A stretch of 64,000 bases of DNA from a virus (lineage: Duplodnaviria > Heunggongvirae > Uroviricota > Caudoviricetes). The DNA lies in the IMG/VR virus record IMGVR_UViG_3300028534_000019, positions 31,091 through 95,090 of that record, one strand, 5' to 3'. The notes under the pieces are model-generated. The model saw only the letters and a program-made list of their open reading frames with translations, searched no databases and was not told the origin of the DNA. Position numbers and translations under genes: made by a program. Positions 6,709-34,802 of the stretch are shown in pieces (the first letter of the stretch is position 1; each line of letters starts with the position of its first letter).

Positions 6709-6954
6709 TCACAAATTAATTTCAAAAAAGTTTCTTACTATGTAGTTTCAATTATGGTATTATTTTCTTTAATAGCAATATTATCAAAACCATCACAAAT
6801 TGAGATAGATGTAAAATCAGGTACTAAAACTCTAACTTGTGAATTTGCTGATGGATGGAGAGAAATAGAACCTGAAAAAGTTGTTGGGTTTAATGATGAA
6901 AATGGATATTGGACTTTTACAAATGGTTATGCTAAAAATTGTGAGGTTAGATAG
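6706..6954 (+). CDS. Small membrane-anchored protein
   Basis: N-terminal hydrophobic helix YYVVSIMVLFSLIAILS. Confidence 0.6.
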   Translation: MSQINFKKVSYYVVSIMVLFSLIAILSKPSQIEIDVKSGTKTLTCEFADGWREIEPEKVVGFNDENGYWTFTNGYAKNCEVR

Positions 6955-7157
6955 TGTTTGTTGATAAAATTTTAGAAAATGGTGTAGAGTGTGTTTTTAT
7001 TACACACTCCAACAAAATAAGAAAGGCATATAGATATAAAAATATTATTTGGAAAATATATGCTAGTGGTGGTTATTCTGAAGTTTTTGAAAGTGAAATT
7101 CAATTCTCAGGAACAAGAGAAGAAGCAAAACAGAAATATCCTGAATTATTTTTTTAA
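6954..7157 (+). CDS. Hypothetical protein with C-terminal YPELFF motif
   Basis: GTG start overlaps the previous stop. Ends ...EEAKQKYPELFF*. Confidence 0.55.
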   Translation: MFVDKILENGVECVFITHSNKIRKAYRYKNIIWKIYASGGYSEVFESEIQFSGTREEAKQKYPELFF

Positions 7158-7166
7158 AGGTTAGAT

Positions 7167-7463
7167 ATGGATTTAGATAAAATAAGATTAATAGAAACAA
7201 ATAGTGCTTTAGGTTATATGGAAGTAGCATACCTAATACAAATAAATGAAAAAGAAATGCTTTGTGTGTATTCAAATGAAGAAGGATATGTAGGTGACCA
7301 TTCTTGGGTGGTTGGTGAAGTGTATGATATGTTTGAATATGAGAGTGATTATGATGAAGTAATTAATGATAAGAAAGAAATGGTATTAAAAGATTCTCCT
7401 CTATATGGTGATTTTTTATTTGACTTTTTCTTAAAACATCTAATTAAGAATAAACTATGTTAG
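7167..7463 (+). CDS. Hypothetical protein
   Basis: 98-codon ORF in the operon. Confidence 0.55.
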   Translation: MDLDKIRLIETNSALGYMEVAYLIQINEKEMLCVYSNEEGYVGDHSWVVGEVYDMFEYESDYDEVINDKKEMVLKDSPLYGDFLFDFFLKHLIKNKLC

Positions 7464-8191
7464 ACTATATATCTATATTAGCTGGTGGTTCTTGTAAATT
7501 TAATTGTGAATTTTGTGTTGGTAATTCTATAAGAGAAAATATCACACCTCATTATAGTTCAAAAATCAAAGGTTTTTTAGAATGTTATGCTGATAGAACA
7601 CAATTACTTTCAGTTTCAGGTGATACTTCAGACCCATCATTAATAAGTGAAACAATATTTATTCCTGTTGAAGCAAAAGAGTATAATAAAGATATAAAAG
7701 TTAGCATACATACAAGGGATATATATTTTACTGAAAAAGCAATGGATTATGGTTATGATAAAATTGTTTTAAGTATTGATGAAACACTTTCAGAAAATGA
7801 TTATCAAACCTTAGTAAATTATTATTACCACTATGGTTATAATATTAGATTAAGTTTTGTTTTAACATCATCTAATTTTTGGATTATTGATGAATGGAAA
7901 AAAGATTTTCCAGCATTATTTGATATGGAATTAACAATAAGACCTGATGTATTTGAAAAAGATGAGGTTTTTAGAAAACATATTTTTTTAGAAACATTTC
8001 TTGGTATAGATGGAGATTGGCAAAATATAGAGCAATATAAAAATGAATATGGTGCTATTGTTTTAGAAAAGTACCCTAATGTTTGGTATTGGGATTATAA
8101 TGTTACTAATAAAAATCTTGATGTTTTATATCTTTTTAGTAATGGTGACATAAAAAATAATTGTAAGTGGGAAAATTTATATGAAAATTAG
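7457..8191 (+). CDS. Radical SAM superfamily protein
   Basis: CKFNCEFC gives the CxxxCxxC cluster near the N-terminus (ILAGGSCKFNCEFCVG), and LLSVSGDTSDPSL resembles the SAM-binding GGE-type strand. The subfamily is not assignable. Confidence 0.65.
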   Translation: MLDYISILAGGSCKFNCEFCVGNSIRENITPHYSSKIKGFLECYADRTQLLSVSGDTSDPSLISETIFIPVEAKEYNKDIKVSIHTRDIYFTEKAMDYGYDKIVLSIDETLSENDYQTLVNYYYHYGYNIRLSFVLTSSNFWIIDEWKKDFPALFDMELTIRPDVFEKDEVFRKHIFLETFLGIDGDWQNIEQYKNEYGAIVLEKYPNVWYWDYNVTNKNLDVLYLFSNGDIKNNCKWENLYEN

Positions 8192-8423
8192 ATTAATAGA
8201 TTATAAAGAAGAAAGTTTTGATTTTCCTTACCCACCAAATTATGGTATGGATTTAGCAAAAATAAAAATAATGGGTAGTACTTTAGATATAGATAAGAAA
8301 CTATCTAAACATCTTGCTGAGTATAATTATTTTATGTATAAGGGTATGAAGATATTTTTTGAAGATTTAAACAATGACTCAAAAAAGAAAATGTATTCAG
8401 AATACCCTGAATATTACTTTTAG
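8181..8423 (+). CDS. Hypothetical protein with C-terminal YPEYYF motif
   Basis: Ends ...KKMYSEYPEYYF*. Confidence 0.55.
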   Translation: MKIRLIDYKEESFDFPYPPNYGMDLAKIKIMGSTLDIDKKLSKHLAEYNYFMYKGMKIFFEDLNNDSKKKMYSEYPEYYF

Positions 8424-8438
8424 TGATTAGGGGATTAT

Positions 8439-8795
8439 ATGAGTTTAGAAAGTACAGTGGCTTCACAGTCAATACACCCAGGAACATATGAAGTACATTG
8501 GGAAAATACATTCGATACAAAAGAAATAGTTAGTACAATAGAAATAAAACAAACTATATATTCTAGTAATCAATTAAAAAAAGTTCTTAAAAAATTATTA
8601 AAAAATTTTGATAAATTAAATAGTGAAATAAAATTAATAGAACCATCATATAATAATACTGAAGAAAAAATTAATAGAACATTTGCTATAATTGATATGA
8701 ATAATGAATATGAGATTAATAAACTAATTTCAGAAGGGTATTCTTTAAAAGAGATACACCAAGGTAAATTTATATTATACAAAAGGATTATATAA
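8439..8795 (+). CDS. Hypothetical protein
   Basis: 118-codon ORF with GGGGA upstream. Confidence 0.55.
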   Translation: MSLESTVASQSIHPGTYEVHWENTFDTKEIVSTIEIKQTIYSSNQLKKVLKKLLKNFDKLNSEIKLIEPSYNNTEEKINRTFAIIDMNNEYEINKLISEGYSLKEIHQGKFILYKRII

Positions 8796-9316
8796 TGGTT
8801 TTAAATTTTTATGGCGGGCCGGGTATTGGTAAAAGTACAAAAGCATCAGAGTTATTTTTTAGATGTAAACAACAAAACTTACAGGTTGAATTAATACACG
8901 AGTTTGCTAAAGATATGGTTTATTCTCAATCTATGGAAATATTGAAAGACCAATATTATGTAGGTGCTAATCAACATCATAGGGTGTGGAGAGTTCATAA
9001 CTATTACTTACAACAAGGTTTTAAAGAGGATGAATTTCTTATAATAACTGATAGTCCTATTTTGTTGGGTGCGGCTTATACTGATGATGATAAATTAAGA
9101 GATTTTATTTTTGAAACTTCAGAAAGATATAATAATATTAATATTATGCTAACAAGAAAATTTAATTACCAAGAAGAGGGAAGAAACCAAGATTTAAAAG
9201 GTGCTATTGAGATTGATAAAAAAGTTTTAGATTTATTAAATAAAACTTCTTATATAGAAACAAATGATACAGATAAAATTTTATCTCTAATTAAGGAAAA
9301 AATGAGTACAATATAA
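8795..9316 (+). CDS. P-loop NTPase (kinase/ATPase-like)
   Basis: Walker A motif FYGGPGIGKST at the N-terminus, and IITDSP as a possible Walker B. Confidence 0.6.
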   Translation: MVLNFYGGPGIGKSTKASELFFRCKQQNLQVELIHEFAKDMVYSQSMEILKDQYYVGANQHHRVWRVHNYYLQQGFKEDEFLIITDSPILLGAAYTDDDKLRDFIFETSERYNNINIMLTRKFNYQEEGRNQDLKGAIEIDKKVLDLLNKTSYIETNDTDKILSLIKEKMSTI

Positions 9317-9335
9317 ATATTAAAAAGGAGATAAA

Positions 9336-9914
9336 ATGACACTTGAAACATTTGCTGTTGAGTATAATAACTTAAAAATAGAAAAAGTATATATAAATTC
9401 ACACACATTAGAATCAGTAAAAAAAAGATTTAATATAGATTTAAAAATATCAGACCTAAAATCTGATATTTCTTTATCTATTGCTTTTCAAAAATATAAA
9501 AAGAATTTTACAGTAAATGATTTTAAGTTTGTTATCTTTATAAATGATATTGTACTTGTATTAAATATATATGAAAAAAATAATAAGTTTTATGGTAAAG
9601 TACTAACAGCATTATCACAAAAACAATTTGAATTAAGCAAAAATTTTTATCTTGGTAGTATTTTTGGTAATTTTGAGTGTACTATAAAAGAATATGCTTA
9701 TGAAGAAGTTTATTTTAATAATAGTTTTGAAAATATAAAAAAATCACTAAATGATTACAAACAATTACCAATATCACTAGATATTGCAACAAGTGATAGT
9801 GATATTAAAAGATTGAGAAAAGCAAACAGAACTGTTGATGTACCTTATATAAAAGGTTATTTTATAAAAGTTGTTGATGGTATTGATTATCTTATTATAG
9901 GTAGTAAAAAATAA
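9336..9914 (+). CDS. Hypothetical protein
   Basis: 192-codon ORF with AAAGGAG RBS. Confidence 0.6.
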   Translation: MTLETFAVEYNNLKIEKVYINSHTLESVKKRFNIDLKISDLKSDISLSIAFQKYKKNFTVNDFKFVIFINDIVLVLNIYEKNNKFYGKVLTALSQKQFELSKNFYLGSIFGNFECTIKEYAYEEVYFNNSFENIKKSLNDYKQLPISLDIATSDSDIKRLRKANRTVDVPYIKGYFIKVVDGIDYLIIGSKK

Positions 9915-13925: not shown

Positions 13926-14552
13926 ATGAGAAAGAAATTTAATGAAGATAAGAACAAAACTTATGAGAGTAAAGAACACTCTTTACATAAAAAGAAGATT
14001 GTAAAAAATCAAGACTATACAAAATTTAGGTTTTTTATAGGAACTTTTGATAATCAAACACCTAAGTTTCATTTAATATTAAATGATTTATATGATTCTA
14101 ATGAAAAAGATGAATTAGAATTAAGAATTATGTCACCAGTTGGATTGGTTATTGAATGTCAGCAAGTTGTGAATATAATGAATAACAAATTTAATGGTAG
14201 AACAACAGCATATATTGAAAGCCACGCTAGTTCAGCAGGTGCTATTGTTTTTGCTAATGCTGATAAAAGAGTTATATATGAAAATTCAAGAATAATGTTT
14301 CACAACTATTCAGGTGGTTATGGTGGTAAATTTCAAGATATTAAAGATAGATTAGATTTTGATGAAAAACATATTATTTCTTTTTTGAGTGTTGCTAAAC
14401 AATTCTTAAATAAAAAAGAATGGAAACAAATGGTAAATGGAAAAAACTTTTGGTTTGATGCTTCTGATATGTTAAAAAGAAATATAGCAACTCATATCAT
14501 AGTAGATGGTAAAGAGATGACTAAGAAAGAATATAAAAAATATAAAAAATAA
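13926..14552 (+). CDS. ClpP-fold serine protease (S14-like)
   Basis: SHASSAGAIVF (catalytic Ser context), NSRIMFHNYSGG (His) and FWFDASDML (Asp region), in ClpP order. Carries an N-terminal basic extension of about 50 aa. Confidence 0.7.
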   Translation: MRKKFNEDKNKTYESKEHSLHKKKIVKNQDYTKFRFFIGTFDNQTPKFHLILNDLYDSNEKDELELRIMSPVGLVIECQQVVNIMNNKFNGRTTAYIESHASSAGAIVFANADKRVIYENSRIMFHNYSGGYGGKFQDIKDRLDFDEKHIISFLSVAKQFLNKKEWKQMVNGKNFWFDASDMLKRNIATHIIVDGKEMTKKEYKKYKK

Positions 14553-17051: not shown

Positions 17052-17250
17052 TCTAAAAAGTGCTGATGAAATATATTTAGTAGTACAGTTTGGAGCAAAA
17101 GATTTTAACAATAGAACACAAGAATTGATTGATGAAAATTATATTCCATTTAGTGATGTTGCTGTTCAAAGTTTTCACGATGAATTTTGCTTTTCACAAC
17201 AGTTTATAAAAAATCCAAAATACATAGAAGAAACAAAAAGGAAAATATAA
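17041..17250 (+). CDS. Hypothetical protein
   Basis: 69-codon ORF overlapping the smpB end by 11 nt. Confidence 0.45.
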   Translation: MIDNLKSADEIYLVVQFGAKDFNNRTQELIDENYIPFSDVAVQSFHDEFCFSQQFIKNPKYIEETKRKI

Positions 17251-18041
17251 TGTTAATAGTACCTGTTGGTTTGCCTGGTTCAGGAAAAACTGTTTTATCA
17301 AGAAAATTTAATACAGTTATAAATGCTGATGAATTGTTTAAGGATAATTATACATTAGATGATTTAATAAATTATATAAAAGAATATAATTATACAGTAA
17401 CAGATGTTTATTTGGATGGTTTATTTATTACAAGGAATTTAGTTAAGAAATTGATTGAAACTTTTGATTATTATATTAGATTAGTATATTTTAAACCTAA
17501 TATAGAAAATTGTATCTACAATGATTTATCAAGAAATAGAGAAAAAGATAGTGTTAATATAATTTATGGTTCTGATTTAAGTTTTATGAAAGAAAGTTAT
17601 TTTAGAAATAAAATAAGAGAAACAATGGAAGTATATAAGGCTGATTATGTAGAATATATAAAAGAAGAAAATAACTTTCAAAATTATATAGAAACACAAG
17701 AGTATGTCTTAGAAGGAAGTACATATGGTACTTGTTGGGATGAAGACGGCCCGTCTGAAACAACACCTGATGACCCATACCATTTTACTGATTTTACAGA
17801 ACTTGAAAAGATATTTAAAAAAATGAATATTCCTTATACAGAAGAAAATTATAATAAAATTGAAAGTGTTATAGAAGAAGAAGATAGAAGTGAGGGTGAT
17901 TATTATGGTGGTTATGCTTATAAAGAGGTTTATAGAGTTGAAGTTACATTATTAATAAAAGCAATACTAAAAGAGTTTTTTGGTATTGATAAAACAGATA
18001 TGGCATATATTAAAAAAGAATACCCTGAACTAATATTTTAA
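17250..18041 (+). CDS. P-loop kinase-like protein (polynucleotide-kinase-like N-terminus) with C-terminal YPELIF motif
   Basis: MLIVPVGLPGSGKT is a Walker A at the extreme N-terminus, as in T4 Pnk-type kinases. The ATG at 17250 overlaps the previous stop (TAATG). Ends ...IKKEYPELIF*. Confidence 0.55.
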   Translation: MLIVPVGLPGSGKTVLSRKFNTVINADELFKDNYTLDDLINYIKEYNYTVTDVYLDGLFITRNLVKKLIETFDYYIRLVYFKPNIENCIYNDLSRNREKDSVNIIYGSDLSFMKESYFRNKIRETMEVYKADYVEYIKEENNFQNYIETQEYVLEGSTYGTCWDEDGPSETTPDDPYHFTDFTELEKIFKKMNIPYTEENYNKIESVIEEEDRSEGDYYGGYAYKEVYRVEVTLLIKAILKEFFGIDKTDMAYIKKEYPELIF

Positions 18042-18056
18042 AAAAAAGGCTAAAAA

Positions 18057-18569
18057 ATGGTAGAAGAAAATAATTTTAGAGAAACAAAAACACATATTTA
18101 TTTTTGGGGTAGTATCTATTCTCAATGGTACACTTCAAAAAACCAATTCAAAGAAGATGGATTTATTTTTCAAAATGCTGAACAGTATATGATGATGAAA
18201 AAAGCAGAACTTTTTAAAGATTATGATGTATTAGAAAAAATGAAACAAACAAGTAATCCAAAGGTATTAAAAAAATTGGGTAGAGAAATTAAAGGTTTTG
18301 ATGAAGATATTTGGAATTTTAATAAAATGGATATTGTTGAAAGAGGGAATTTTTTAAAGTTCTCTCAAAATCCTAAGTTATTAGAAAAACTTATAGCACA
18401 CAAAAATAAACATATAGTAGAAGCATCACCTTATGATAAGATTTGGGGTATTGGGCTTCATTGGTCAGATGATAAGGTATTAAATGAAAGTACTTGGAAT
18501 GGTGAAAATCTTTTAGGTAAATGTATTATGTCAGCAAGAGATAAAATTTTAAATCCAAAATCTATATAA
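18057..18569 (+). CDS. NADAR (YbiA/DUF1768) family protein
   Basis: IYFWGSIYSQWY, FQNAEQYMMMKKAELF, GNFLKFSQNPKL and IVEASPYDKIWGIG are the family signatures as I recall them. Confidence 0.8.
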   Translation: MVEENNFRETKTHIYFWGSIYSQWYTSKNQFKEDGFIFQNAEQYMMMKKAELFKDYDVLEKMKQTSNPKVLKKLGREIKGFDEDIWNFNKMDIVERGNFLKFSQNPKLLEKLIAHKNKHIVEASPYDKIWGIGLHWSDDKVLNESTWNGENLLGKCIMSARDKILNPKSI

Positions 18570-18639: not shown

Positions 18640-20490
18640 ATGGCAGTTATTGGTATAGATTTAGGAACGACAAATAGTGCTGTTTCAGTTTATGAAGTAG
18701 GGGAATTTAAAATTATTCCTAATGCTGAGGGTAAAAATACAACACCTAGTATTGTAGCATTTACAGATAAAGGGGATGTATTAGTAGGGGAATCAGCAAA
18801 AAGACAAGCAGTCACAAACCCTGAAAAAACTATTGAAGCAATTAAAAGAATTATGGGTATGCAATTTAATGAACCTAGATGTAAAGAGGCTCAAGAAAAA
18901 GTACAATATAAAATTGTAGATAAAAATGGTTTGGCCGCTGTTGATGTTGATGGTAAGATTTATACACCACAAGAAATTTCAGCTAAAATCCTTACAAAAC
19001 TAAAAGATGATGCAGAAGCATTTATTGGTAAAGAAGTTACAGATGCTGTAATTACAGTTCCAGCATACTTTAATGATGCTCAGAGAAAGGCGACACAAGA
19101 GGCAGGCGTTATTGCAGGGCTTAATGTACTAAGAATTATTAATGAACCTACTTCGGCCGCTCTTGCTTATGGTTTGGACAAAAAAGGTGAGGAAAATATT
19201 CTTGTTTATGATTTTGGTGGTGGTACTTTTGATGTATCTGTATTAGAAATTGGAGATGGTACTTTTGAAGTTCTTTCAACTGATGGTAATGCTTTCTTAG
19301 GTGGTAAAGACTTTGACCAAATTTTAGTTAATTATATTGCTGAATATTTTAAAGAGAAACAGGGTGTTGATTTAAGAAATGATAAAATGGCACTTCAAAG
19401 ATTATATGATGCTTCAGAAAATGCTAAAAAAGAGTTATCAAGTGTTGTAGAAACTGAAATTAACTTACCATTTATTACTATGACAGAAGCCGGCCCGCAG
19501 CATCTTGTTTTAAAAATTTCAAGAGGTAAATTTGAGGGGTTAGTACAAAATCTTGTAGATGAAACTATTGAACATATTACAACAGCATTACAAGACGCTG
19601 GTTTAAGTGTAGATGATATTAGTGAATTGATTATGGTTGGTGGCTCAACAAGAATACCTTTAGTACAAGAGGCAGTTTCAAAGTATTTTAAAGGTAAAAC
19701 TCTTAATAAATCTGTTAATCCTGATGAAGTTGTAGCCGCTGGTGCTTCAATTCAAGGTGGTGTATTAACAGGAGATGTAAAAGATGTTCTTCTTCTTGAT
19801 GTTACACCATTATCACTTGGTATTGAAACTATGGGTGGTATTGCTACTAAAATCATCCCAAAAGGTACAACTATTCCTGTTAAAAAATCAGAAATCTTTA
19901 GTACAGCAGTTGATAATCAACCAGCAGTTAGTATTGTAGTAGTACAAGGTGAAGCAAAATTAGCAGAAGATAATAAATCTTTAGGACAATTTAATCTTGA
20001 GGGTATAACACCAGCTAAAAAAGGTGTACCACAAATTGAAGTTAATTTTGATGTTGATTCTAATGGTGTTTTGAGTGTATCAGCTATTGATAAAGGAACA
20101 GGTAAAGAACAGAAAATAACAATTACAGGTTCGACAGGTTTAAGTGAAGAAGAAATTAGAAAGATGATTGATGATGCTGAAAAACAAAATCAAGAAAAGG
20201 CTGAAAAAATTAAAGCAATTGAAGCAAAAAATGAATTGGATGCTACTCTTTCAAGAATTAAAAACTTTAATGATGAAGAAAAAAATGAAGTGCTATCAGC
20301 TAAAATTTCTGATGTTGAAGAATATGTAAAAGAAGATAGAACAGCAGAAGAAATTAGAAAAATTAGAGATGAACTTGAAGAAGTTTATTTAAAAGCATTT
20401 GAAGAGAAATCAAAAAGAAATGAAGGTGCTGAGGTAAAAGAAAGCACTGAAAATAATGATGATGTTATTGATGCTGAAATTGAAGAATAA
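18640..20490 (+). CDS. dnaK: Hsp70 chaperone DnaK (canonical bacterial type)
   Basis: [69 protein letters not shown], and an acidic tail [10 protein letters not shown]. Confidence 0.95.
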
Positions 20491-20501
20491 AAGAGGAAAA
20501 A

Positions 20502-21305
20502 TTGAAAAAATTATATAAAATTCTTGAAATTGAAGAAACTTCTACAACAGTAGAAATAAAAAAAGCATATAGAAAATTAGCTAAAAAATACCACCCTGAT
20601 GTTTGTAAAGAAGAGGGTGGTGAAGATAAGTTTAAAGAAATTAATAGAGCATATGAAGTTCTAAGCAATCCACAAGAAAAACAAAAGTATGATAGATTTG
20701 GTGATGAAATGTATGAAAAAATGGGGTCAGGTGGTGGAAGACCTAATCCAAATGCTGATGAGTTTGCAGAAGCAATGGCATCATTTTTCAACCAAAAGGG
20801 AAATCCCCGACAAGGTAATCCTTTTGGTATGGGTGGTAATCCTTTTATTCATACAACAATTCAAGCATATATTTCGATAGAAGATTTATTTAAAGGTACT
20901 TCTATACAATTACAAGATGGTACTAAAGTAAAAATACCACCTAGAACAATACCGGGTAGTAGGGTAAGAGTTAAAGGCAAAGGTATGTCAGATGGTAAAA
21001 ATACAGGAGATTTATTTATTATCATAACACCAAAAAATAATGATAAAGAATTTGTTGAGAATGATACTATTATAAAGATTATCAAAATTGATTTAGTTAG
21101 TATGATTTTTGGAAATGAAATAAAATATAATCATTATGGTAAAGATTTAATTGTTACTGTTCCAAAAAATACAAAGCCCGGTGACTTTGTACAAATTCCC
21201 AATCAGGGCTTAGGTACTCAGGGTTCATTAATTTTACATTTAGATTTAGAATTACCAAAAGCAGAAGATTTAGATGAAGAAAAAGTAAAAGAATTATTTA
21301 ATTAA
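20502..21305 (+). CDS. J-domain co-chaperone (DnaJ/CbpA-like, no zinc-finger domain)
   Basis: TTG start after AAGAGG. J domain is YKILEIEETSTTVEIKKAYRKLAKKYHPDV with HPD, followed by a G/F-rich linker and a DnaJ C-terminal beta domain. No CxxCxGxG repeats. Confidence 0.85.
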   Translation: MKKLYKILEIEETSTTVEIKKAYRKLAKKYHPDVCKEEGGEDKFKEINRAYEVLSNPQEKQKYDRFGDEMYEKMGSGGGRPNPNADEFAEAMASFFNQKGNPRQGNPFGMGGNPFIHTTIQAYISIEDLFKGTSIQLQDGTKVKIPPRTIPGSRVRVKGKGMSDGKNTGDLFIIITPKNNDKEFVENDTIIKIIKIDLVSMIFGNEIKYNHYGKDLIVTVPKNTKPGDFVQIPNQGLGTQGSLILHLDLELPKAEDLDEEKVKELFN

Positions 21306-21312
21306 TATACAA

Positions 21313-21334
21313 TTAAGGTTTCTTTTGCTATAAT
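21313..21334 (+). promoter_or_regulatory. Promoter candidate (TTAAGG-N10-TATAAT)
   Basis: TTAAGGTTTCTTTTGCTATAAT. TATAATTTCATCATAT is shared with the 6089-6165 intergenic region. Confidence 0.5.
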
Positions 21335-21364
21335 TTCATCATATATAAACTAAAAGGATTCAAA

Positions 21365-21769
21365 ATGGCAAAAGAAAAAAGTTATGGGGTTGCTCCTTAT
21401 TTAATTATAAATGGGCAATATTATATATTGTTAAATAAAACATCAGAACATAGTAGATACAATTTCTTCAAAGGTAAAATTGAAGAGGGTGAAACTATTG
21501 CTCAATGTGCCAAAAGAGAATTTTGGGAAGAAACAGGTGTAGAAGTTGATGAGAGAGATTTTGAAGAATATTTTTTCCAAAAGTCTTCTAAAAAAGATGT
21601 TGGTATTTTTTTAATTAATTGGTCTAAATATATTAATAAAAAATTTCAATTTCAAAAAAGAGAAATTTGGGCTTCTTATTGGGTAGAGGTTGATGATGTT
21701 CAAACATCCAAAAACCAAAAAGAAATTGTTGATTCTATTGAATCTTTTTTTAAAAATAAATCTGAGTAA
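21365..21769 (+). CDS. Nudix hydrolase
   Basis: Complete Nudix box GKIEEGETIAQCAKREFWEETGV (Gx5Ex7REUxEExGU). Confidence 0.85.
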   Translation: MAKEKSYGVAPYLIINGQYYILLNKTSEHSRYNFFKGKIEEGETIAQCAKREFWEETGVEVDERDFEEYFFQKSSKKDVGIFLINWSKYINKKFQFQKREIWASYWVEVDDVQTSKNQKEIVDSIESFFKNKSE

Positions 21770-24447: not shown

Positions 24448-25548
24448 ATGTTAGTTCAAAATAAAAAAGTTCCAAAAGAAACATTAGAGTTATTGGACTC
24501 TAAAATAGAAGAATTTGAAAAAAATACAAATTCAACTGTTTTATATATTACAATTACAGGTTCTGTTCTTTATGGTACTGATAATGAAAATAGTGATTTA
24601 GATTTTAAAGGTATTTTTATGCCTAATCTAAAAGAAGTGCTTATTGGTAATACACCTAGTGCTTTTGTTTTTAATTCAAATACAAAAGATAAAAACTCTT
24701 CTGATGATATTGATTTAACATTACACCCTGTAAATGACTTCTTTAATCATCTTAGAAAATCTGAAACAGGTGCTGTTGATTTACTTTTTAGTATGTTTAG
24801 AGAAGATACTATTGTTTTTGATGATGGTATTTTCACGAACTTTATGAAGAAAAATTATCAAAAGTTTAGAAATTCTAATATGAAAAGTTTTATCGGTTAT
24901 GCTGTTGGTCAAACTAAAAAATTTGGGATTAAAGGTGCTAGATATGAAGAGTTAGATGTTTTTTATAAAGATTGTGTTAATTATTTTAATCTTGCTCCAA
25001 AAGAAAATAAATTAGGTGAATATTGGGATTTTCTTGAACTAAAAGCCCAAGGTAAAAAATATATTAAGTTTACAAAAGCAGAAGGTGCTAGAAGAAATGA
25101 TGGTAGTAGTAATATCATTGATTATATTTCTGTTCTTGGTAAACTATATCATAAAGATGTAACAGTAGGTTATTTTTTAGAAAGAGTTTCTAAATTTTAT
25201 AATCAATTTGGTAATAGAACTAAAACAGTAGCTAAAACTGAATCAAAAACAGATTGGAAAGCAATGAGCCACGCCCTTAGAGTAGCTATGGAAGTTAAAG
25301 AGTTACTTCAATTTGGTTTTATTAAATTTCCATTGACTTATGCTGATGAGATTAAAGAAGTTAAATTTGGTAACAGAGAAGAACAAGAAACATTAGATAA
25401 AATTAGAGATGTATTGGGTGAAGTTGATACAATATTAGAAAATATTGATAAAGATAACTTTCCTTGTGAAATGAGTGAAGAATTACTTAAAAAATTAAAA
25501 TGGGAAGTAATTCTTCTATATAAAGAGTTTTTAGATTTAGGTTTTTAA
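24448..25548 (+). CDS. Nucleotidyltransferase (RlaP/PF10127-like, Pol-beta superfamily)
   Basis: ITITGSVLYGTDNENSDLDFKGIF gives the GS...G...D-x-D NTase signature of the RNA-ligase-associated family. Confidence 0.65.
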   Translation: MLVQNKKVPKETLELLDSKIEEFEKNTNSTVLYITITGSVLYGTDNENSDLDFKGIFMPNLKEVLIGNTPSAFVFNSNTKDKNSSDDIDLTLHPVNDFFNHLRKSETGAVDLLFSMFREDTIVFDDGIFTNFMKKNYQKFRNSNMKSFIGYAVGQTKKFGIKGARYEELDVFYKDCVNYFNLAPKENKLGEYWDFLELKAQGKKYIKFTKAEGARRNDGSSNIIDYISVLGKLYHKDVTVGYFLERVSKFYNQFGNRTKTVAKTESKTDWKAMSHALRVAMEVKELLQFGFIKFPLTYADEIKEVKFGNREEQETLDKIRDVLGEVDTILENIDKDNFPCEMSEELLKKLKWEVILLYKEFLDLGF

Positions 25549-25549
25549 A

Positions 25550-26602
25550 ATGGATTTTGATTTTGATGAAATTGTTGCTACAAGAACTTATGTTGATTGT
25601 TATTGTAATGATAATATAAGTTCAGATGATATTAAAGGTATATTAAATCCTAATTTTATTAATAAAACATTAAATGAAATAGATAATTTTTTATATGGTG
25701 GTTTTAATTATTTTAGTAAAAGAGTTCCATTCACTTTAGCTGGTGGTTCTCTTCTTAGTTATTGTTCTTATTATATAGCTACAAAAAATGATTATGGTAA
25801 TCCAAAAAGTTATTTAGATTGGTTGGAATATTCAGGTAATTCTGATATTGATTTATTTTTTGAATGTGAGGAAGATTATATAAAAATGCTTGAAGCAGTA
25901 CAAAAAAATGGTTTTAGTAATTTATCACCTAAACCAAATGCTAAAAGTTTTTATAAAAAAAGAGGAAAAAATAAAAATACAATTTCAATAGATTTAGTAC
26001 ATAAAGATTATTCAGCACCACAAAAACTTATAGATAGATTTGATTTGAATAAGAGTAAAATTGCTATAAGTTCTTATGGCAATCTTTATATAGGTAATGA
26101 TTTTGATAATTATCTTTGTTTAAATCCATTAAATATAAATTATAATACTATATCAAGATTTAAAAAATATTCTATAACAAAACATATACAACCTTCATAT
26201 AAAACTTTACAAGAACTTGTACATATTTTCATTGATAAACAAGATGAAGTATATGAAAGTTTTTATAATGATGAAAAAAGAGATATACCTATGTATGGTG
26301 GGCTTGAAAATCTGATTACAATTATTGTAGATTGTAAAAAGTTATATAACATAGATTTAAAACTTAGTCGTGATGAGGTATTTAACTTATATTTAATATT
26401 GGAGAAACATTTTTCTGAAAAAGATAGATTAATTTCTTTTTTTACAAAAATAATTAATGAAGATAGTATTGATTATATACCTAAAATATATGAATTATTA
26501 TTACAACGACAAGATAGATTTTATGGAAAACAATTTGAAGATAATATGGATGAATCTATTAGAGATAAAGTTTTAGAAACATACCCTGAAATAATGTTTT
26601 AA
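25550..26602 (+). CDS. Hypothetical protein (possible second NTase-fold protein) with C-terminal YPEIMF motif
   Basis: FTLAGGSLLSY...GNSDIDLFFE is weakly NTase-like, with longer than typical spacing. Ends ...KVLETYPEIMF*. Confidence 0.35.
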   Translation: MDFDFDEIVATRTYVDCYCNDNISSDDIKGILNPNFINKTLNEIDNFLYGGFNYFSKRVPFTLAGGSLLSYCSYYIATKNDYGNPKSYLDWLEYSGNSDIDLFFECEEDYIKMLEAVQKNGFSNLSPKPNAKSFYKKRGKNKNTISIDLVHKDYSAPQKLIDRFDLNKSKIAISSYGNLYIGNDFDNYLCLNPLNINYNTISRFKKYSITKHIQPSYKTLQELVHIFIDKQDEVYESFYNDEKRDIPMYGGLENLITIIVDCKKLYNIDLKLSRDEVFNLYLILEKHFSEKDRLISFFTKIINEDSIDYIPKIYELLLQRQDRFYGKQFEDNMDESIRDKVLETYPEIMF

Positions 26603-26664: not shown

Positions 26665-27576
26665 ATGGAAGAACAAATAGCGATTGATTTAGGCTATTCA
26701 ACATCAAAAGTTGCTTATGCTGATAAAATAGCAAAATTCCCAACTGCTGTTTCTTTTGCTACTGATGTAGGTACATCATATGGTGAAGGGAATATTTATG
26801 ACTTTGAGGGAGATAAGTATTATGTGGGTAGTGAAGCCGCTGATGCTGAGGCTTTTACAACTATGGATTTTAAATTTTTATATAAATTTGCTCCTCTTCT
26901 TATCTATCATATTTTAAGTAAATTTGATAAAGCAGAACTTGAAAAACCTATTGTTGTAAAAACAGGATTGGCAATTGTTGATTGGCATAAAAAAGATGAT
27001 TTTATTGAAAGAATTTCAAAAATTGAAGTGAATGGGCAAACTGTTGAAACAACACCCATTCTTATTCCTCAAGGTGCTGGATGTGCTGTTGATTGGGTTT
27101 CATCAGATAATGATGGAGAATGGCCGGACAATCTTACAGTAGTTGATATTGGTTATAATACTATTAACCTTATATCATTTTTAGAGGGTAAACCAATTAG
27201 AAAAAATATGAAAAGTTACCCAGGACACGGTGTTTCTAGTATAATTAAACCTTTTACTAGTTATCTTGAAAATACTTTTGGTACAACATTTTCAGAACAA
27301 GAAGCAATTAAATTTTTTGTTAAAGGTACTTTTAAATATAATGGTGAAGACCAACCTAAAGTATCAGAAAAAATTACAGAATTAAAATCACAATTTGTTA
27401 AAAAAATGTTTCAATCTGTTTTAGTTTCTGATAAAAAACTTCTTGCTATGTCAGATGTAGTGCTTATTGCTGGTGGTGGTGCTTATTTACTTCAAGATAT
27501 TCCATTCCCGCCAAATGTTGAGTTTGTTGATTCTCCTTATGAGTTCAGTAATACTCGTGGTTATTTAATTTCATAA
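26665..27576 (+). CDS. Actin-like ATPase (ParM/Alp family)
   Basis: Actin-fold phosphate and adenosine motifs in order: IAIDLGYSTSKVAY, VVDIGYNTINL, VLIAGGGAYLL, and a C-terminal NTRGYLI (compare ParM ...VNGMYLIG). Confidence 0.7.
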   Translation: MEEQIAIDLGYSTSKVAYADKIAKFPTAVSFATDVGTSYGEGNIYDFEGDKYYVGSEAADAEAFTTMDFKFLYKFAPLLIYHILSKFDKAELEKPIVVKTGLAIVDWHKKDDFIERISKIEVNGQTVETTPILIPQGAGCAVDWVSSDNDGEWPDNLTVVDIGYNTINLISFLEGKPIRKNMKSYPGHGVSSIIKPFTSYLENTFGTTFSEQEAIKFFVKGTFKYNGEDQPKVSEKITELKSQFVKKMFQSVLVSDKKLLAMSDVVLIAGGGAYLLQDIPFPPNVEFVDSPYEFSNTRGYLIS

Positions 27577-30669: not shown

Positions 30670-30909
30670 ATGGAAATACAATCTTTATTATATAAATGTG
30701 ATAAATGTGATGCTATTATAGATAATCCAATTTCTAAAGAATATAATATTCATTTTTGTAACAAATGTGTTTTAGAGTTTATTCATAATAAGATGGTAAT
30801 TGAATTTAATGAACCTCAAAAAATTCATAACATAAATGAAAATCATAAAGATGAACATATAACGACAAAAAATATAGATTTTTGTGAAGTTAGTATTAAG
30901 GATTTATAA
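30670..30909 (+). CDS. Small zinc-ribbon protein
   Basis: CDKCDAII...CNKC four-Cys pattern. Confidence 0.5.
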   Translation: MEIQSLLYKCDKCDAIIDNPISKEYNIHFCNKCVLEFIHNKMVIEFNEPQKIHNINENHKDEHITTKNIDFCEVSIKDL

Positions 30910-31217
30910 TGTCAAAGCAATGGCTTAGTGAATTAATAGAACAGCCATATGAATGGTGTATTGAAACTGTTACAAAAGAGCCTGAATTACTAAAAAATAT
31001 AAAAGTACAAACACAAGAACTTTGTGAAATAGCATTTTATGAAGATTATAAAACAGCAAAATATATACATCAAGAATTTAGATTTAATGAGAGAATTTTA
31101 GCTATTGCTCGACAGCATAGTTTATTAAATAAAAGCATACCACAAGATATGCTTGAAAAAATAAATGAATATCCATATAATTACTTTGAAAAGAAATATC
31201 CTGAAATCTTTTTCTAA
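30909..31217 (+). CDS. Hypothetical protein with tandem C-terminal motif (EYPYNYF then KYPEIFF)
   Basis: Ends ...KINEYPYNYFEKKYPEIFF*. Confidence 0.55.
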   Translation: MSKQWLSELIEQPYEWCIETVTKEPELLKNIKVQTQELCEIAFYEDYKTAKYIHQEFRFNERILAIARQHSLLNKSIPQDMLEKINEYPYNYFEKKYPEIFF

Positions 31218-31229
31218 TTTAATAAAAGG

Positions 31230-31567: not shown

Positions 31568-32455
31568 ATGGATAAAGGTTTATTTGGAATTATTGGAGCA
31601 GGTGTATTAGTAGTTATGCTATTAATTTTAGGTGCTACATCAGTTTATACAGTTGATGAGGGTAAAGTTGGTATTGTAAAGACTTGGGGTAAAGCAGTAA
31701 AGCAAGTTAATCCCGGACTTCACTTCAAAATGCCTATTGCTGATGAGGTTGTAGAGATTGAGGTAAGAACAAGAAAAAATGTTGAAACTATGAGTATTGC
31801 TACAAGTGAGCAAATGGCGGCAAAAGCAACTGTTTCTATGAACTGGACTGTTAATAAAGCAAGTGTTTTAGAACTCTATAAGAAATATGGCTCACTTGAC
31901 CAATTTGAAAGTAGAATTTTAGACCCAAAACTTAGAGATGCCACAAAAGAGGGTATTGCTAAATTTACAGCAGAACAAAATATTAAGAACAGAGGTGTAA
32001 GCACACTCAAAGTTAAGGAATTATTTATTAACCAAATTAAAGGTTATCCTATTACTGTTAATGGTTTTCAAATTGAAGATATTCAATTAAGTAAAAAATA
32101 TCTTGCTTCAATTGATGCTAAACAAACAGCTAAAAATGAAAGAGATGCTGAAAAATTTAAACTTGAAAAACAAGCCCTTGAAGCACAAAGAGCAGTAAAT
32201 ACAGCAAATGCTGAAAGAGATGCCGCTAAAGCAAGAGCAGATGGTGTGGCTTATAAAATTGAAGCAGAAGCAAAAGCAAATGCTAAGAAAATTGCCCTTA
32301 TTGCTGGAGCAGAAGCAAAAGCAATTAAACAAAAAGCACAAGCACTTAAAAATAACCCTGCTATTATAGACTATATGAGAGCAGAAAAATGGAGTGGGAA
32401 TTATCCTACTACTATGATGGGTAGCAACCCAAACATTCTTATGAAATTAAAATAA
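31568..32455 (+). CDS. SPFH/band-7 (prohibitin/HflC-like) membrane protein
   Basis: N-terminal TM helix, then YTVDEGKVGIVKTWGKAVKQVNPGLHFKMPIADEVVEIEVRTR, and an Ala/Lys/Glu-rich coiled coil at the C-terminus. Confidence 0.8.
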   Translation: MDKGLFGIIGAGVLVVMLLILGATSVYTVDEGKVGIVKTWGKAVKQVNPGLHFKMPIADEVVEIEVRTRKNVETMSIATSEQMAAKATVSMNWTVNKASVLELYKKYGSLDQFESRILDPKLRDATKEGIAKFTAEQNIKNRGVSTLKVKELFINQIKGYPITVNGFQIEDIQLSKKYLASIDAKQTAKNERDAEKFKLEKQALEAQRAVNTANAERDAAKARADGVAYKIEAEAKANAKKIALIAGAEAKAIKQKAQALKNNPAIIDYMRAEKWSGNYPTTMMGSNPNILMKLK

Positions 32456-32465
32456 GAGTATCTTC

Positions 32466-32489
32466 TAATAGAGGTTTTTACCTCTATTA
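32466..32489 (+). terminator. Hairpin after the SPFH gene (terminator candidate)
   Basis: TAATAGAGGT / ACCTCTATTA form a 10-bp perfect stem with a TTTT loop. No U-tract follows. Confidence 0.4.
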
Positions 32490-32552
32490 CCCCTAACACA
32501 TCTACATACATATAATCACAACAACAAAACAACAAAAAATTTTAATATTACA

Positions 32553-32573
32553 TTAAGAATATTCAGCTATAAT
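32553..32573 (+). promoter_or_regulatory. Promoter candidate (TTAAGA-N9-TATAAT)
   Basis: TTAAGAATATTCAGCTATAAT. The -10 element and leader are shared with 15830-15870. Confidence 0.5.
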
Positions 32574-32602
32574 ACTACATATAAAACATAAAAGGATTAA
32601 AA

Positions 32603-32914
32603 ATGGAAGAGTTTTTAAATAAGTTTGAAAAAATAGTTGATAGTTTCCCTTTAAACCCATCATACTTTTTAGTATTGGATATAGCAAATGATGTTTCAAA
32701 TGCTATGTTAGAAGATGATAAAGAAGTTTGTAGAAATATGTTATTAAAATATATTAAAATTGAATGTAGCATAGAAACATATAATGAAAACAGAAAAGAA
32801 ATTGATAAATTAATTTCAAAAATTAAAGAAACATTGATTACACTTTGTTTAACATTTTCAAGAGATGATAGTTTTATAATGGTTGATGATAATTTAATAG
32901 ATTTAGAATTATGA
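32603..32914 (+). CDS. Hypothetical protein
   Basis: 103-codon ORF. Confidence 0.55.
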   Translation: MEEFLNKFEKIVDSFPLNPSYFLVLDIANDVSNAMLEDDKEVCRNMLLKYIKIECSIETYNENRKEIDKLISKIKETLITLCLTFSRDDSFIMVDDNLIDLEL

Positions 32915-33183
32915 TTGAAAATTATTTTGATTGGTTTTTAAATAATTCTGAAGAATTAAGTGATTTTAGGAATGATTTTTTATATACGATAATAACTATT
33001 GAAACAGCACCAAAAATGGAACTTAGTTTATTCTATGTTTTTAAAGATTTAGGTATTAATCTTGATATATCTGATATTAGTGTTAAGGTTAATAGTACAA
33101 GTTCTAGTTTAAGTGTTTCAGATAATTTAAAAGAAAAACTAAAACTCTATATAAAAGAAAAATATCCTGAAATTATATTCTAA
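32911..33183 (+). CDS. Hypothetical protein with C-terminal YPEIIF motif
   Basis: Ends ...KLYIKEKYPEIIF*. Confidence 0.55.
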   Translation: MIENYFDWFLNNSEELSDFRNDFLYTIITIETAPKMELSLFYVFKDLGINLDISDISVKVNSTSSSLSVSDNLKEKLKLYIKEKYPEIIF

Positions 33184-33194
33184 TTAATTTTAAT

Positions 33195-33216
33195 TTAAGC
33201 ATTTAATAGATATAAT
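33195..33216 (+). promoter_or_regulatory. Promoter candidate (TTAAGC-N10-TATAAT)
   Basis: TTAAGCATTTAATAGATATAAT. Confidence 0.5.
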
Positions 33217-33245
33217 ATCACATATAAAAGGAAAAAGGAACAAAA

Positions 33246-33461
33246 ATGAGTTTAACATATAAACAGATTACAGAACATATTTCTAAGATTAAAGAAAATA
33301 TTTCTATTCTTGAAGATAGACTTGATACTGAATGTAAAAGTGCTGAGTCTAATAGTTGTATTGCTAAAACATTACTAGAAGAACTTGATAAGCAAGAGAT
33401 GGCTTTAATGGTAGCTGAAGATTATTTTGATAGAGTAATAGATAGAGGAAGAGGAGATTAA
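33246..33461 (+). CDS. Hypothetical helical protein
   Basis: 71-codon ORF. Confidence 0.5.
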   Translation: MSLTYKQITEHISKIKENISILEDRLDTECKSAESNSCIAKTLLEELDKQEMALMVAEDYFDRVIDRGRGD

Positions 33462-33464
33462 AGA

Positions 33465-34577
33465 ATGAAAATTACAGAGATTAAACCTATTTTACAGTTT
33501 TCTAAAGATGCTGATGATGCTGTAATCATTGAGGGTAAACACGGTATTGGTAAATCAGAAATAGTTAAACAATATTGTTCGGAAAATGGTTATTTTTATA
33601 CTGTTTTATTTTTAAGTCATCAAGAAGTTGGTGATTTGATTGGTATGCCTTTTGAAAAAAATGGTATTCAATATTGGTCTAAACCATCTTGGTTAGTAAG
33701 AATGGAAGAAGCATCAGCAAGAGGGGAACATAATGTTTTACTCTTAGATGAGTTAAACCGAGCCCAAACTGATGTATTACAAAGTGCTTTACAACTTGTT
33801 TTAGAAAGACAAATTCACGAGCATTTCTTACCTACTACTGATGGTGTAAGAAGTCAAGTAATTGCTTGTATTAACCCTGATGATGATTTATATCAAGTAA
33901 TTACACTTGACCCAGCACTAAAAGATAGATTTTTACATTTAAAAACAAGTGAAGATTTACAAGGATGGGTTAAATGGGGTGGTGAAAAAGGAGTACCTGA
34001 TGTTGTTATTCATTACTTGCTTGAAAATGAAAATGATTTTCATAGTACAAATGAAGATGGTGAGGGTGCTACACCAAGAAGTTGGTATAAATTAAGTCAA
34101 TTCTTGAAAATATTTGAAGATAAAGAAGTTGAAGAATTTCAACTTTGGGAGATTATTAAAGGTAAAGTAGGTTCAAGTATCGGTAGCAAATTCCTTAACT
34201 TTTATAATACTCATAGTACATTTATTGATGTTACAAAAATTAAAAAGTTTTTAAATAAATATAAAAGAGATATTTCTGATTTACCTGAAATTGGTGCTGA
34301 ATTAGCTAGTTATATTAAAGGTCTTGAACAAGTAACTAAAGTAGAACAAGTTAATAAACTATATCACGACAGTATTGAAAAAATTAAAGATACTAAAGTT
34401 ACTATGGATGATGAAGATATTTTCACTATTTTTGCTATGCTTCACGCTTTTGAAATAGAAGTAACAACATCAGTTATGAAGCAATGGAAAAATGAAAGTG
34501 TGAGTGATTTTATGGATTTTGTTAAAAAAGATAATAAAGAACTCATTACATTAATAACAAGAAGATTAAAAACATAA
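33465..34577 (+). CDS. AAA+ ATPase (MoxR / AAA_5-like)
   Basis: Walker A IIEGKHGIGKSE, Walker B plus sensor LLLDELNRAQTDVLQSALQLVLER, and ACINPDD...LDPALKDRF. Confidence 0.8.
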   Translation: MKITEIKPILQFSKDADDAVIIEGKHGIGKSEIVKQYCSENGYFYTVLFLSHQEVGDLIGMPFEKNGIQYWSKPSWLVRMEEASARGEHNVLLLDELNRAQTDVLQSALQLVLERQIHEHFLPTTDGVRSQVIACINPDDDLYQVITLDPALKDRFLHLKTSEDLQGWVKWGGEKGVPDVVIHYLLENENDFHSTNEDGEGATPRSWYKLSQFLKIFEDKEVEEFQLWEIIKGKVGSSIGSKFLNFYNTHSTFIDVTKIKKFLNKYKRDISDLPEIGAELASYIKGLEQVTKVEQVNKLYHDSIEKIKDTKVTMDDEDIFTIFAMLHAFEIEVTTSVMKQWKNESVSDFMDFVKKDNKELITLITRRLKT

Positions 34578-34592
34578 AAGAGGTATTAAAAA

Positions 34593-34802
34593 ATGTATGC
34601 TTTAATAGGTTATAATGATGAGTATTATTACATTCAAATTTTTTCAGAAACTGATGTTGTGTATGGTTATATAATATATAACTTTAGTGGGGATAAAAGT
34701 TTAGTAGTTGATAATTTCCCAATTAGTTCAGTATTAAAAAGGTTTGAAACATTATATACTATTGAAGAAATACAAAATTTATACCCTGAATTAAAGTTCT
34801 AA
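34593..34802 (+). CDS. Hypothetical protein with C-terminal YPELKF motif
   Basis: Ends ...IEEIQNLYPELKF*. Confidence 0.5.
   Translation: MYALIGYNDEYYYIQIFSETDVVYGYIIYNFSGDKSLVVDNFPISSVLKRFETLYTIEEIQNLYPELKF

Follow-up and report, generated by a model that had tools for sequence, protein, structure and literature searches.

Several described systems place a short peptide at the extreme C-terminus of proteins that are otherwise unrelated. The ssrA tag added by transfer-messenger RNA (tmRNA) and the degrons of ClpXP, FtsH and Tsp are short, end in non-polar residues, and allow many unrelated proteins to be treated as one class. The tip of SSB (DDDIPF-COOH) and the acidic tails of T4 and T7 that end in an aromatic residue dock on partner proteins, where a pocket accepts the free carboxylate and the terminal hydrophobic or aromatic residues; the sequence before these is acidic. 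The clamp tails of T4 gp43, gp55 and gp33 (SLDFL[FY]) and the PIP boxes place acidic, then hydrophobic, residues at the C-terminus of unrelated phage proteins. The PEP-CTERM/exosortase, LPXTG and PGF-CTERM signals likewise label many unrelated proteins, and here the label contains Pro-Glu. We describe a C-terminal peptide, YPE[LIY]xF-COOH (the YPE tail), that ends seven open reading frames (ORFs) in a 64,000-nt stretch of viral DNA, positions 31,091-95,090 of the Caudoviricetes record IMGVR_UViG_3300028534_000019 (hereafter the window), and that recurs, in variant forms, on up to a quarter of the proteins of related phages.

The YPE tail departs from each of these systems. It is encoded in frame in the gene, with Pro-Glu invariant at positions -5/-4, whereas the ssrA tag is added by tmRNA; an ssrA-type or ClpXP degron was rejected because the tail is genomically encoded and the tag peptide of the phage tmRNA, ANNTDYTGNTVLSA, is dissimilar. 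The logic of the SSB tip is reversed, since SSB is one hub tail with many partners and the YPE tail sits on many proteins, without an acidic run or IPF. The YPE tail is set apart from the clamp tails by its invariant Pro, by the absence of the S-L-D core and by its occurrence on dozens of small orphan proteins, and none of the seven window tails fits a clamp-binding motif (SLDFL[FY]; PIP, Qxx[LIM]xx[FY][FY]; QL[SD]LF). Proteins bearing the tail (carriers) differ from PEP-CTERM proteins in being soluble and acidic, without a signal peptide, transmembrane (TM) helix or basic cluster. PEP-CTERM sorting was rejected on the grounds that only three residues follow the Pro-Glu and that a TM-like segment is found in just 2/77 carriers of the cultured Vibrio phage phiTY18 (versus 15/112 size-matched controls); no sortase gene was seen among the annotated genes of the window. 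A first-pass annotation of the window knew of no description of the motif, and we found none either in the literature searched by peptide string and phage name, in genome papers on the Vibrio phage group, or under C-terminal degrons and shared motifs. A genome-encoded C-terminal label that unrelated phage proteins share on a proteome scale is, as far as we can tell, a feature of a new kind, although the logic of C-terminal tagging is itself known.

The seven plus-strand ORFs end in KQKYPELFF, SEYPEYYF, KKEYPELIF, LETYPEIMF, EKKYPEIFF, KEKYPEIIF, and NLYPELKF, each followed directly by the stop codon (Table 1); all seven ends are as the first-pass annotation had reported them. The tandem motif it had read in the 102-aa ORF is present in its terminal copy, but the upstream copy is degenerate. 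The window has a GC content of 26%, and its statistics were computed on a greedy set of 92 genes, 81 of which are on the plus strand. The tripeptide YPE occurs eight times in this proteome, against approximately 2.1 expected, and seven of the eight lie exactly at -6 from the C-terminus; the eighth is internal, at aa 642 of the gp6-like baseplate ORF 58671-62429. At the DNA level TAYCCNGAR is found eight times on the plus strand, at the same eight YPE sites, and once on the minus strand. ORFs ending in PExxx-stop number seven, compared to a mean of 0.20 and a maximum of three in 5000 per-protein shuffles, and by analytic calculation YPE[LIY]xF-stop would be expected 1e-4 times in the window. 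The enrichment over shuffled proteins, which had been proposed as a check, thus holds in the window, and it is repeated in related phages.

Table 1. Carriers of the YPE tail, candidate reader genes, and promoter elements in the window.
Feature	Position in window	Strand	Remarks
Carrier, 67 aa, GTG start, orphan	6954..7157	+	KYPELFF-stop at 7137-7157; no Pfam/PHROG match; no homolog in ~90 loci
Carrier, 80 aa, orphan	8181..8423	+	EYPEYYF-stop at 8403-8423; no Pfam/PHROG match; no homolog in ~90 loci
Carrier, 263 aa, N-terminal P-loop kinase and conserved C-terminal domain	17250..18041	+	EYPELIF-stop at 18021-18041
Carrier NT350, 350 aa, Pol-beta-type nucleotidyltransferase-like	25550..26602	+	TYPEIMF-stop at 26582-26602
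Carrier, 102 aa, orphan	30909..31217	+	KYPEIFF-stop at 31197-31217; degenerate upstream copy EYPYNYF; no homolog in ~90 loci
Carrier, 90 aa, orphan	32911..33183	+	KYPEIIF-stop at 33163-33183; no PHROG match
Carrier, 69 aa, orphan, between MoxR and VWA genes	34593..34802	+	LYPELKF-stop at 34782-34802; no PHROG match
MoxR-type AAA+ ATPase (AAA_5)	33465..34577	+	Context and candidate reader only; Pfam; 41% identity to phiTY18 ortholog
DUF2201 protein, putative metallopeptidase (HEMLH) and VWA with DxSGS MIDAS	35220..36473	+	Candidate reader only; Pfam
T4-type late promoter boxes, TATAAATA	9312, 10383, 11716, 14575, 42924, 42946, 47940, 49655, 53948 and others	+	13 on this strand, 12 intergenic
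Intergenic repeats, 50-65 nt	~6094, 6635, 13866, 15806, 21292, 24382, 26603, 31219, 32541, 33184	+	Precede operon-first genes

Outside the tail the carriers have little in common. When the last eight residues of the seven window proteins were removed, blastp found no similarity between any pair, in agreement with the first-pass annotation, and five of the seven have no match in Pfam, PHROGs or approximately 90 related loci. Among 40 tail-trimmed carriers compared by blastp, only the kinase orthologs match one another. In phiTY18, 67 of the 77 carriers are singletons and 11/76 match any PHROG, these matches being spread over nine families. The two window carriers with recognizable enzyme domains have unrelated folds. 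One, as the first-pass annotation had proposed, is a P-loop kinase, with fold matches to Pnk, PSTK and adenylate kinase; the other, possibly an NTase in that annotation and here called NT350, belongs to an uncharacterized family and carries the GGS...DID signature of a Pol-beta-type nucleotidyltransferase (NTase)-like protein. A profile of NT350 returned nothing significant from Pfam or the PDB; among the PHROGs, phrog_4400 is a weak hit. Both families keep the tail across considerable divergence. The window kinase-like protein and its nine homologs, at 30-37% identity, all end in xPE-h-h-h-stop (10/10), with P259 and E260 invariant, and the tail is retained in 6/6 members of the NT350 family at 21-25% identity (alignment A4), once as Ala-Glu. 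NT350 homologs are found in phiTY18 and in loci L017, L018, L019, and L021, where they directly adjoin the gene of a MoxR-type ATPase.

Across the clade the tail has the form x-P-E-Φ-Φ-[F/L/I/V]-COOH, and enrichment was counted by PExxx-stop. Relatives were found via the loci of kinase-like homologs and via 80 MoxR-anchored loci. Across 12 related genomes or loci, 158/747 ORFs are carriers, while 77 other phage loci contain a single carrier among 2056 ORFs, and there are none in the first 50 kb of T4 (0/91 ORFs, 1-50 kb) or CP220 (0/57, 1-50 kb). The complete 191.5-kb genome of phiTY18 has 77 carriers among 340 ORFs, compared to 0.85 expected position-specifically; all are on the main coding strand and arranged in arrays, and 73 of them are 64-144 aa long. 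The tail is also abundant in the cultured Vibrio phages Pv27, phiKT1024 and Va1. Individual loci vary in density, with 11/39 ORFs in L004, 5/15 in L006, 12/34 in L007 (and five more with Ala-Glu or Leu-Glu), 2/27 in L008, 30/52 (58%) in L019, and 10/24 in L061; shuffle means for PExxx-stop in the window, L004, L006 and L007 are 0.03-0.2. Loci holding kinase-like homologs are rich in additional, unrelated carriers. The distant kinase homologs in L009, L010 and L011, the last of which matches the N-terminal P-loop region only, lack the tail and their loci lack carriers, as do 72 of the 80 MoxR-anchored loci. When homologous proteins are paired across genomes inside the clade, carrier is matched with carrier in 12/12 cases. 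Among the genomes and loci compared, the tail is restricted to one clade of T4-like myoviruses, a scale that the first-pass annotation had missed.

The densest locus, L019 (IMGVR_UViG_3300028042_000003, a 21 kb locus), is an array of head-to-tail genes with 4-nt overlaps, in which the 30 carriers end in xPExx-L and are mostly 60-100 aa long. In two of these carriers the tail is partially duplicated (IYPEDNYPEYYL and IYPKEKYPEYYL), in a form such as YPEDNYPEYYL. Together with the duplication in the 102-aa window carrier, this suggests that the DNA encoding the tail undergoes slippage or recombination, and the tag could plausibly spread in this way.

Alignment of the tails extends the motif beyond the residues first noticed. 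The consensus is hydrophobic(-10)-[K/R](-9)-x-x-[Y/H/F](-6)-P(-5)-E(-4)-Φ-Φ-[F/L/I/V]-COOH, and the first-pass annotation had missed both the hydrophobic residue at -10 and the basic residue at -9. In phiTY18, where P(-5) and E(-4) are invariant among the 77 carriers by the definition used to select them, position -1 is Ile in 65 of 76-77 carriers, -2 is Phe or Leu, -3 is Leu, Glu or Tyr, -6 is Tyr, His or Phe, and -9 is Lys or Arg. Position -10 is hydrophobic in 63/77 and -13 often so; the window carriers, with A, M, I, V, F, I and I at -10, fit this pattern. Examples are YIKKEYPELIF, the last 11 residues of the window kinase-like carrier, and EVLKQKYPEKFI from phiTY18. The position of the motif is absolute: Pro-Glu does not occur elsewhere in the last 14 residues of a protein, and in phiTY18 the strict form is terminal in 54/54 occurrences and never internal. 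Conservation among the phiTY18 carriers ceases approximately 10-13 residues from the C-terminus. An AlphaFold2 (AF2) model of the kinase-like carrier has a helix at residues 251-257, a kink at Tyr-Pro and a one-turn helix at 259-262, and a single-sequence AF2 model of the 90-aa carrier, with a predicted local distance difference test score (pLDDT) of 60, has a C-terminal helix at 71-84 followed by a non-helical tail. In these models the tail forms the end of a predicted amphipathic helix, followed by a Pro-kinked last turn. The carriers overall are non-homologous, soluble and acidic, mostly 60-140 aa long, with a median net charge of -3 versus -0.5 in controls. None of 76 phiTY18 carriers has a T4-type late promoter directly upstream, compared to 20/264 other genes. 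In the window every carrier falls within a block that lacks late promoters and is served by sigma-70-like promoter repeats. Short, terminal, recurrent on non-homologous proteins, more frequent than chance, and kept in orthologs, the tail is in operational terms a C-terminal short linear motif.

The codons of the tail were compared to distinguish selection on the peptide from selection on the nucleic acid. In the window the core TAYCCTGAA does not vary, with Pro encoded by CCT in 7/7 tails (51% in the genome) and Glu by GAA in 7/7, and rare codons are over-used for Tyr (TAC 4/7; 9% in the genome) and for the terminal Phe (TTC 3/7; 11% in the genome). The first-pass annotation had concluded from varying DNA that conservation acts on the protein. 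The conclusion stands on the codons of the relatives, but the window core is more uniform than was claimed, and with an invariant core the window alone cannot prove protein-level selection. The relatives do. Pro is encoded in L004 by CCT (4), CCA (3), CCG (2), and CCC (2), and the final Leu by five codons. P-E-x-Φ-I is maintained in the 49 phiTY18 carriers without overlap with the next gene, although their codon usage is like that of the genome (GAA 38/49, with Pro codons mixed), and where Pro is replaced (by Ala, Ser, Asp or Cys) the codons are ordinary ones. Variation is concentrated at synonymous third positions, and the tail is therefore selected at the protein level. The non-overlapping phiTY18 tails do not show the CCT/TAC/TTC-type skew of the window, for which accuracy selection, a recent spread at the DNA level or an additional RNA signal in this lineage are possible causes.

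In the relatives only, the same codons have acquired a second role, which the first-pass annotation had missed. Among the 28 phiTY18 carriers whose stop overlaps the next start, the codons are GAG in 26/28, CCG in 15/28, ATA in 24/28, and TGA in 26/28, so that their tails spell (C)CG GAG N8 ATG A, i.e. a Shine-Dalgarno (SD) sequence, a spacer and an overlapping start. In L007 the near-identical CCGGAGTATTTTGTATGA is found on many genes and shows the same SD signal; Pro can there be replaced by Ala (GCG) or Leu (TTG). The tail codons CCG GAG nnn nnn ATA TGA have thus been co-opted as the SD and start of the downstream gene, as in the familiar coupling of genes through an SD and an ATGA overlap. 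The signal is present in 28/77 phiTY18 carriers and most L007 carriers, and it differs from a general explanation in being absent from the other 49/77 and from all seven window carriers, which are followed by genes with their own ribosome-binding site past the stop or by a promoter-bearing spacer. The 22 non-carrier phiTY18 genes that overlap their neighbor end in many unrelated peptides; SD/ATG overlap alone does not, therefore, produce P-E-x-Φ-I. Since in addition no window carrier overlaps its neighbor, we conclude that the peptide is primary and that its codons were co-opted where convenient. In some lineages the choice of Ile, Val or Leu (NTA codons) at the end may have been aided by co-option, which cannot explain the Phe of the window or the CTN-coded Leu of L004.

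The strongest clue to what the peptide does is its last residue, which changes in concert within each genome. It is Phe in 7/7 window tails, Leu in 11/11 tails of L004, 5/5 of L006 and 30/30 of L019, Ile in 10/10 of L061, and Val or Ile in L007, and kinase orthologs carry the residue type of the genome in which they reside. Because the codons for this residue vary, gene conversion is not the cause. A concerted last residue, a strictly terminal position, an invariant Pro-Glu, and conservation in two enzyme families down to 22-37% identity are what would be expected of a docking peptide read by one partner, and on balance we consider it probable, though by no means secure, that a trans-acting reader of the free C-terminus exists. 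In such a scheme the free carboxylate and the Pro-Glu would be recognized by a single common partner, which could be encoded by the phage or be a universal machine of the host. The reader would differ slightly between lineages, the tails would co-evolve with it, and the tagged proteins would be handled as one class, with timed turnover (a phage 'C-degron') or recruitment and remodeling as the most plausible outcomes. Since as many as a quarter of all proteins carry the tail, a reader that processes its clients (a protease, an unfoldase or a chaperone) is more plausible than a hub that binds them stoichiometrically. The docking or sorting tag of the first-pass annotation is consequently still the best reading, now extended to turnover, whereas most of the partners it named have been weakened.

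Some of the data sit uneasily with a shared reader, and these are best considered alongside the other explanations. The invariant TAYCCTGAA core leaves room for a nucleotide-level contribution in the window genome. A single docking site would have to serve as much as 23% of a proteome, and 58% of the ORFs in L019, in competition with one another. In the kinase-like carrier the tail is predicted with moderate pLDDT (72-82), which is also compatible with packing on its own domain, and 36% of carriers overlap the downstream gene, against 5-8% of non-carriers, which shows that translation-level selection also acts on the same bases in the relatives. This last figure and the SD-spelling tails of phiTY18 and L007 speak for regarding the peptide as a by-product, without function of its own, of translational coupling (an SD and the next start) or of a gene-boundary cassette such as a recombination linker. 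Promoter-early stem-loops (PeSLs), reportedly described by Arbiol et al. in 2010 as mobile cassettes in hyperplastic regions of T4-type phages, offer a precedent: they too are repeated elements at the borders of arrayed small ORFans, the tail could likewise aid modular shuffling, and in L007 and phiTY18 the tail DNA is near-identical on many genes. A PeSL, however, is an intergenic nucleotide repeat, whereas the YPE tail is coding, in frame and synonymously variable. The window carriers have no DNA in common outside the tail codons, and the promoter-like repeats occur independently of them, directly following three of the seven and otherwise following non-carriers; a PeSL-type repeat or cassette was rejected on this evidence. 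Coupling in turn fails to account for the absence of overlap in the window, the genome-like codons of the 49 non-overlapping phiTY18 carriers, the predominantly synonymous variation and the diverse ends of the non-carrier overlapping genes, and an SD leaves the Pro, the aromatic residue at -6 and the hydrophobic residue at -10 unexplained. We regard a by-product of this kind as improbable. Still harder to sustain is hidden paralogy, in which the carriers would be one diverged family, or share a homologous C-terminal domain, with the tail as the last conserved remnant. The narrow size range of the phiTY18 carriers, their tandem arrays and some small paralog clusters among them would suit it, and the first-pass annotation had named one paralogous family with a longer shared domain as the finding that would overturn its proposal. 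Yet blastp detects no similarity beyond the tail, the few PHROG matches are scattered over nine remote-homology families, the P-loop kinase and the Pol-beta NTase-like carrier differ in fold, and conservation ends within 10-13 residues of the C-terminus; common descent of the carriers is thus very improbable. An intramolecular role deserves more weight, though we think it unlikely: the tail could be a helix cap or hydrophobic staple that stabilizes or solubilizes small, fast-evolving proteins, or protects their C-termini against host proteases, with no reader in trans. The amphipathic pattern (-13, -10, -6, -2, -1) with Pro at N1 of the last helical turn, the moderate pLDDT of the kinase-like tail and the predominance of small orphans among the carriers are all in keeping with a cap. 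It leaves unexplained the concerted switch of the last residue (F, L or I/V) across unrelated proteins, with orthologs following the resident genome, as well as the absolute C-terminal position (54/54) and the restriction to one phage clade. Parsell, Silber and Sauer are also said to have found, in 1990, that non-polar C-terminal residues are generally destabilizing in E. coli, which would count against a cap.

If a shared reader is accepted, its identity can be narrowed among the hubs named by the first-pass annotation (Hsp70/DnaJ, a sliding clamp, a ClpP-like protease or capsid-packaging route, and the pair of MoxR and a metallopeptidase-von Willebrand factor A (VWA) protein), although that any one of them is the reader seems doubtful to us. 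The phage Hsp70s have no homolog in phiTY18, which has 77 carriers, and Hsp70 is thereby excluded as a conserved reader. A clamp-like hub is unlikely, as gp32 and RNase H bear a separate, T4-like SLD(D)FL-type tail (DLSFLEDL and SLDDFLEW, respectively), unlike the YPE tail, which has no PIP or QL[SD]LF pattern. The ClpP-like protease gene does have a phiTY18 homolog, but it lies in the late head module, between the terminase and a neck gene, and since the carriers sit outside the late-promoter blocks, a capsid-packaging route does not fit. MoxR and the metallopeptidase-VWA protein are left as the only window-encoded candidate with any support, a tentative one that we think unlikely. Both are among the best-conserved non-structural genes in common with phiTY18 (41% and 37% identity), and the HEMLH motif and the DxSGS metal ion-dependent adhesion site (MIDAS) are intact and conserved in phiTY18; a ligand is typically bound at a MIDAS through one of its Glu or Asp residues. 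A carrier directly adjoins MoxR in the window, L006, L017, L018, L019, L021, and phiTY18, and in four of these seven lineages it is NT350, immediately downstream. Carriers are present in all seven loci with a close MoxR (31-43% identity over most of the length, or 48% over a contig-end fragment in L061). However, the distribution of the module extends far beyond that of the tail, to 66 tail-less loci and to many other phages, so that co-occurrence could be explained by phylogeny alone. The module was described by Iyer et al. 2021 (PMC7824862), who predicted that it acts in virion assembly in those other phages. As a partner it is thus possible but weak, and a universal host machine is equally possible.

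At its most ambitious, the proposal would be a proteome-wide address label: through a C-terminal hexapeptide, at least a quarter of the early and accessory proteins would be addressed to the phage MoxR and metallopeptidase-VWA module, whose MIDAS would ligate the Glu, leading to scheduled remodeling or destruction in a C-degron pathway encoded by the virus. The codons would double as coupling signals and as recombination linkers that carry the tag to new genes. We offer this combined version as a speculative one that is unlikely to be right.

Judged from its gene content, the window genome is that of a T4-like myovirus. It encodes T4-type terminase, gp32, RNase H, primase, gp6/gp25 baseplate proteins, and a neck protein, with an accessory complement of two Hsp70s and DnaJ, tmRNA and an SmpB-like protein, MoxR and metallopeptidase-VWA, Sir2, NADAR, RlaP, an actin-like ALP, and an SPFH protein. 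Megablast of 10 kb of the window against cultured phages gave no match, and a terminase probe of viral contigs did not find relatives; the nearest terminases, at approximately 40% identity, belong to the Vibrio phiKT1024/phiTY18/Pv27/Va1 group and to Campylobacter CP220-like phages. T4-type late promoter boxes (Table 1) lie 24-49 nt upstream of genes of the terminase region and of neck, baseplate and other structural genes, and none is found on the plus strand between 14.6 and 39.3 kb. The 50-65-nt intergenic repeats have the layout …TTTAAG…N…(G)CTATAAT…CATATAAAA…AAAGGA…ATG and are probably early or middle promoters of sigma-70 type with leaders. A sigma-70 consensus scan of the AT-rich window was uninformative, with 117 sites versus 137 expected.

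The gene complement holds several observations of interest in their own right. The tails of gp32 (1345-2358, ...SDDLSFLEDL) and RNase H (2370-3512, ...SLDDFLEW) constitute a second C-terminal motif class in the window, and resemble those of T4 gp43 (...SLDFLFG) and gp55 (...SLDFLYEAND), which are known to bind the clamp. A tmRNA (39452-39772, +) and an SmpB-like protein (Pfam PF01668; 16602-17051, +) make up a complete trans-translation pair carried by a T4-like phage; the tmRNA matches Rfam RF00023 over its full length at 90.8 bits, and its tag peptide was called by ARAGORN. No SmpB homolog was found in phiTY18, and a link between the YPE tail and the phage tmRNA/SmpB was rejected for that reason. 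Two full-length Hsp70/DnaK genes, within 18640-21769 and at 39844-41706 (+), score 767 and 472 bits to PF00012, and are joined by DnaJ (20502-21305, +) and a NUDIX hydrolase (21365-21769, +) in a phage-borne chaperone set.

Genes for nucleotide and RNA handling are dense at 4884-5633, 17250-18569, 24448-26602, 37321-39122, and 42406-42903. They include Sir2, the Pnk/PSTK-like kinase, NADAR, the RNA-repair NTase RlaP, a metallophosphoesterase, a PolyA_pol/CCA-adding-type NTase head domain, and MazG, and look like an RNA-repair or anti-defense toolkit. The RlaP gene is directly upstream of NT350, which in the window lies 7 kb upstream of MoxR; in five related lineages MoxR and an NT350-family carrier form a conserved pair of immediately adjacent genes, at L014:6942-9249, L017:7486-9455, L018:10001-11984, L021:3619-5777, and L019:8938-11116. 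The actin-like ALP (26665-27576) has a phiTY18 homolog at 24% identity. NfeD and SPFH proteins are known partners in bacteria, and the window encodes both an SPFH/Band-7 protein (31568-32455) and a ClpP/NfeD-like serine protease (13926-14552, between the terminase and neck genes), 17 kb apart. Three adjacent genes for proteins of 170-174 aa (46290-47935) form the only minus-strand block, and the one dip in GC skew falls at the same place (44-48 kb). The genes 46290-46814 and 46887-47399 (-) are paralogous, and both match one phiTY18 gene at 37-42% identity.

Most early genes of phages encode small orphan proteins with neither known function nor common features. A label on 8% of the ORFs of the window, and on 23-58% of those in related genomes or loci, is a first common handle on this class, and it provides a simple sequence marker for an uncultured clade that also helps to confirm very short gene calls. 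The relatives offer a clean case of dual coding, in which six codons are selected both for the peptide they encode and for the ribosome-binding site and start that they supply to the gene that follows. The abundance of the tail in cultured Vibrio phages with tractable hosts makes its function testable. If a shared reader exists, the YPE tail would represent a new viral way to organize, localize or time-limit the proteins of host takeover, and would offer a portable tag for engineering.

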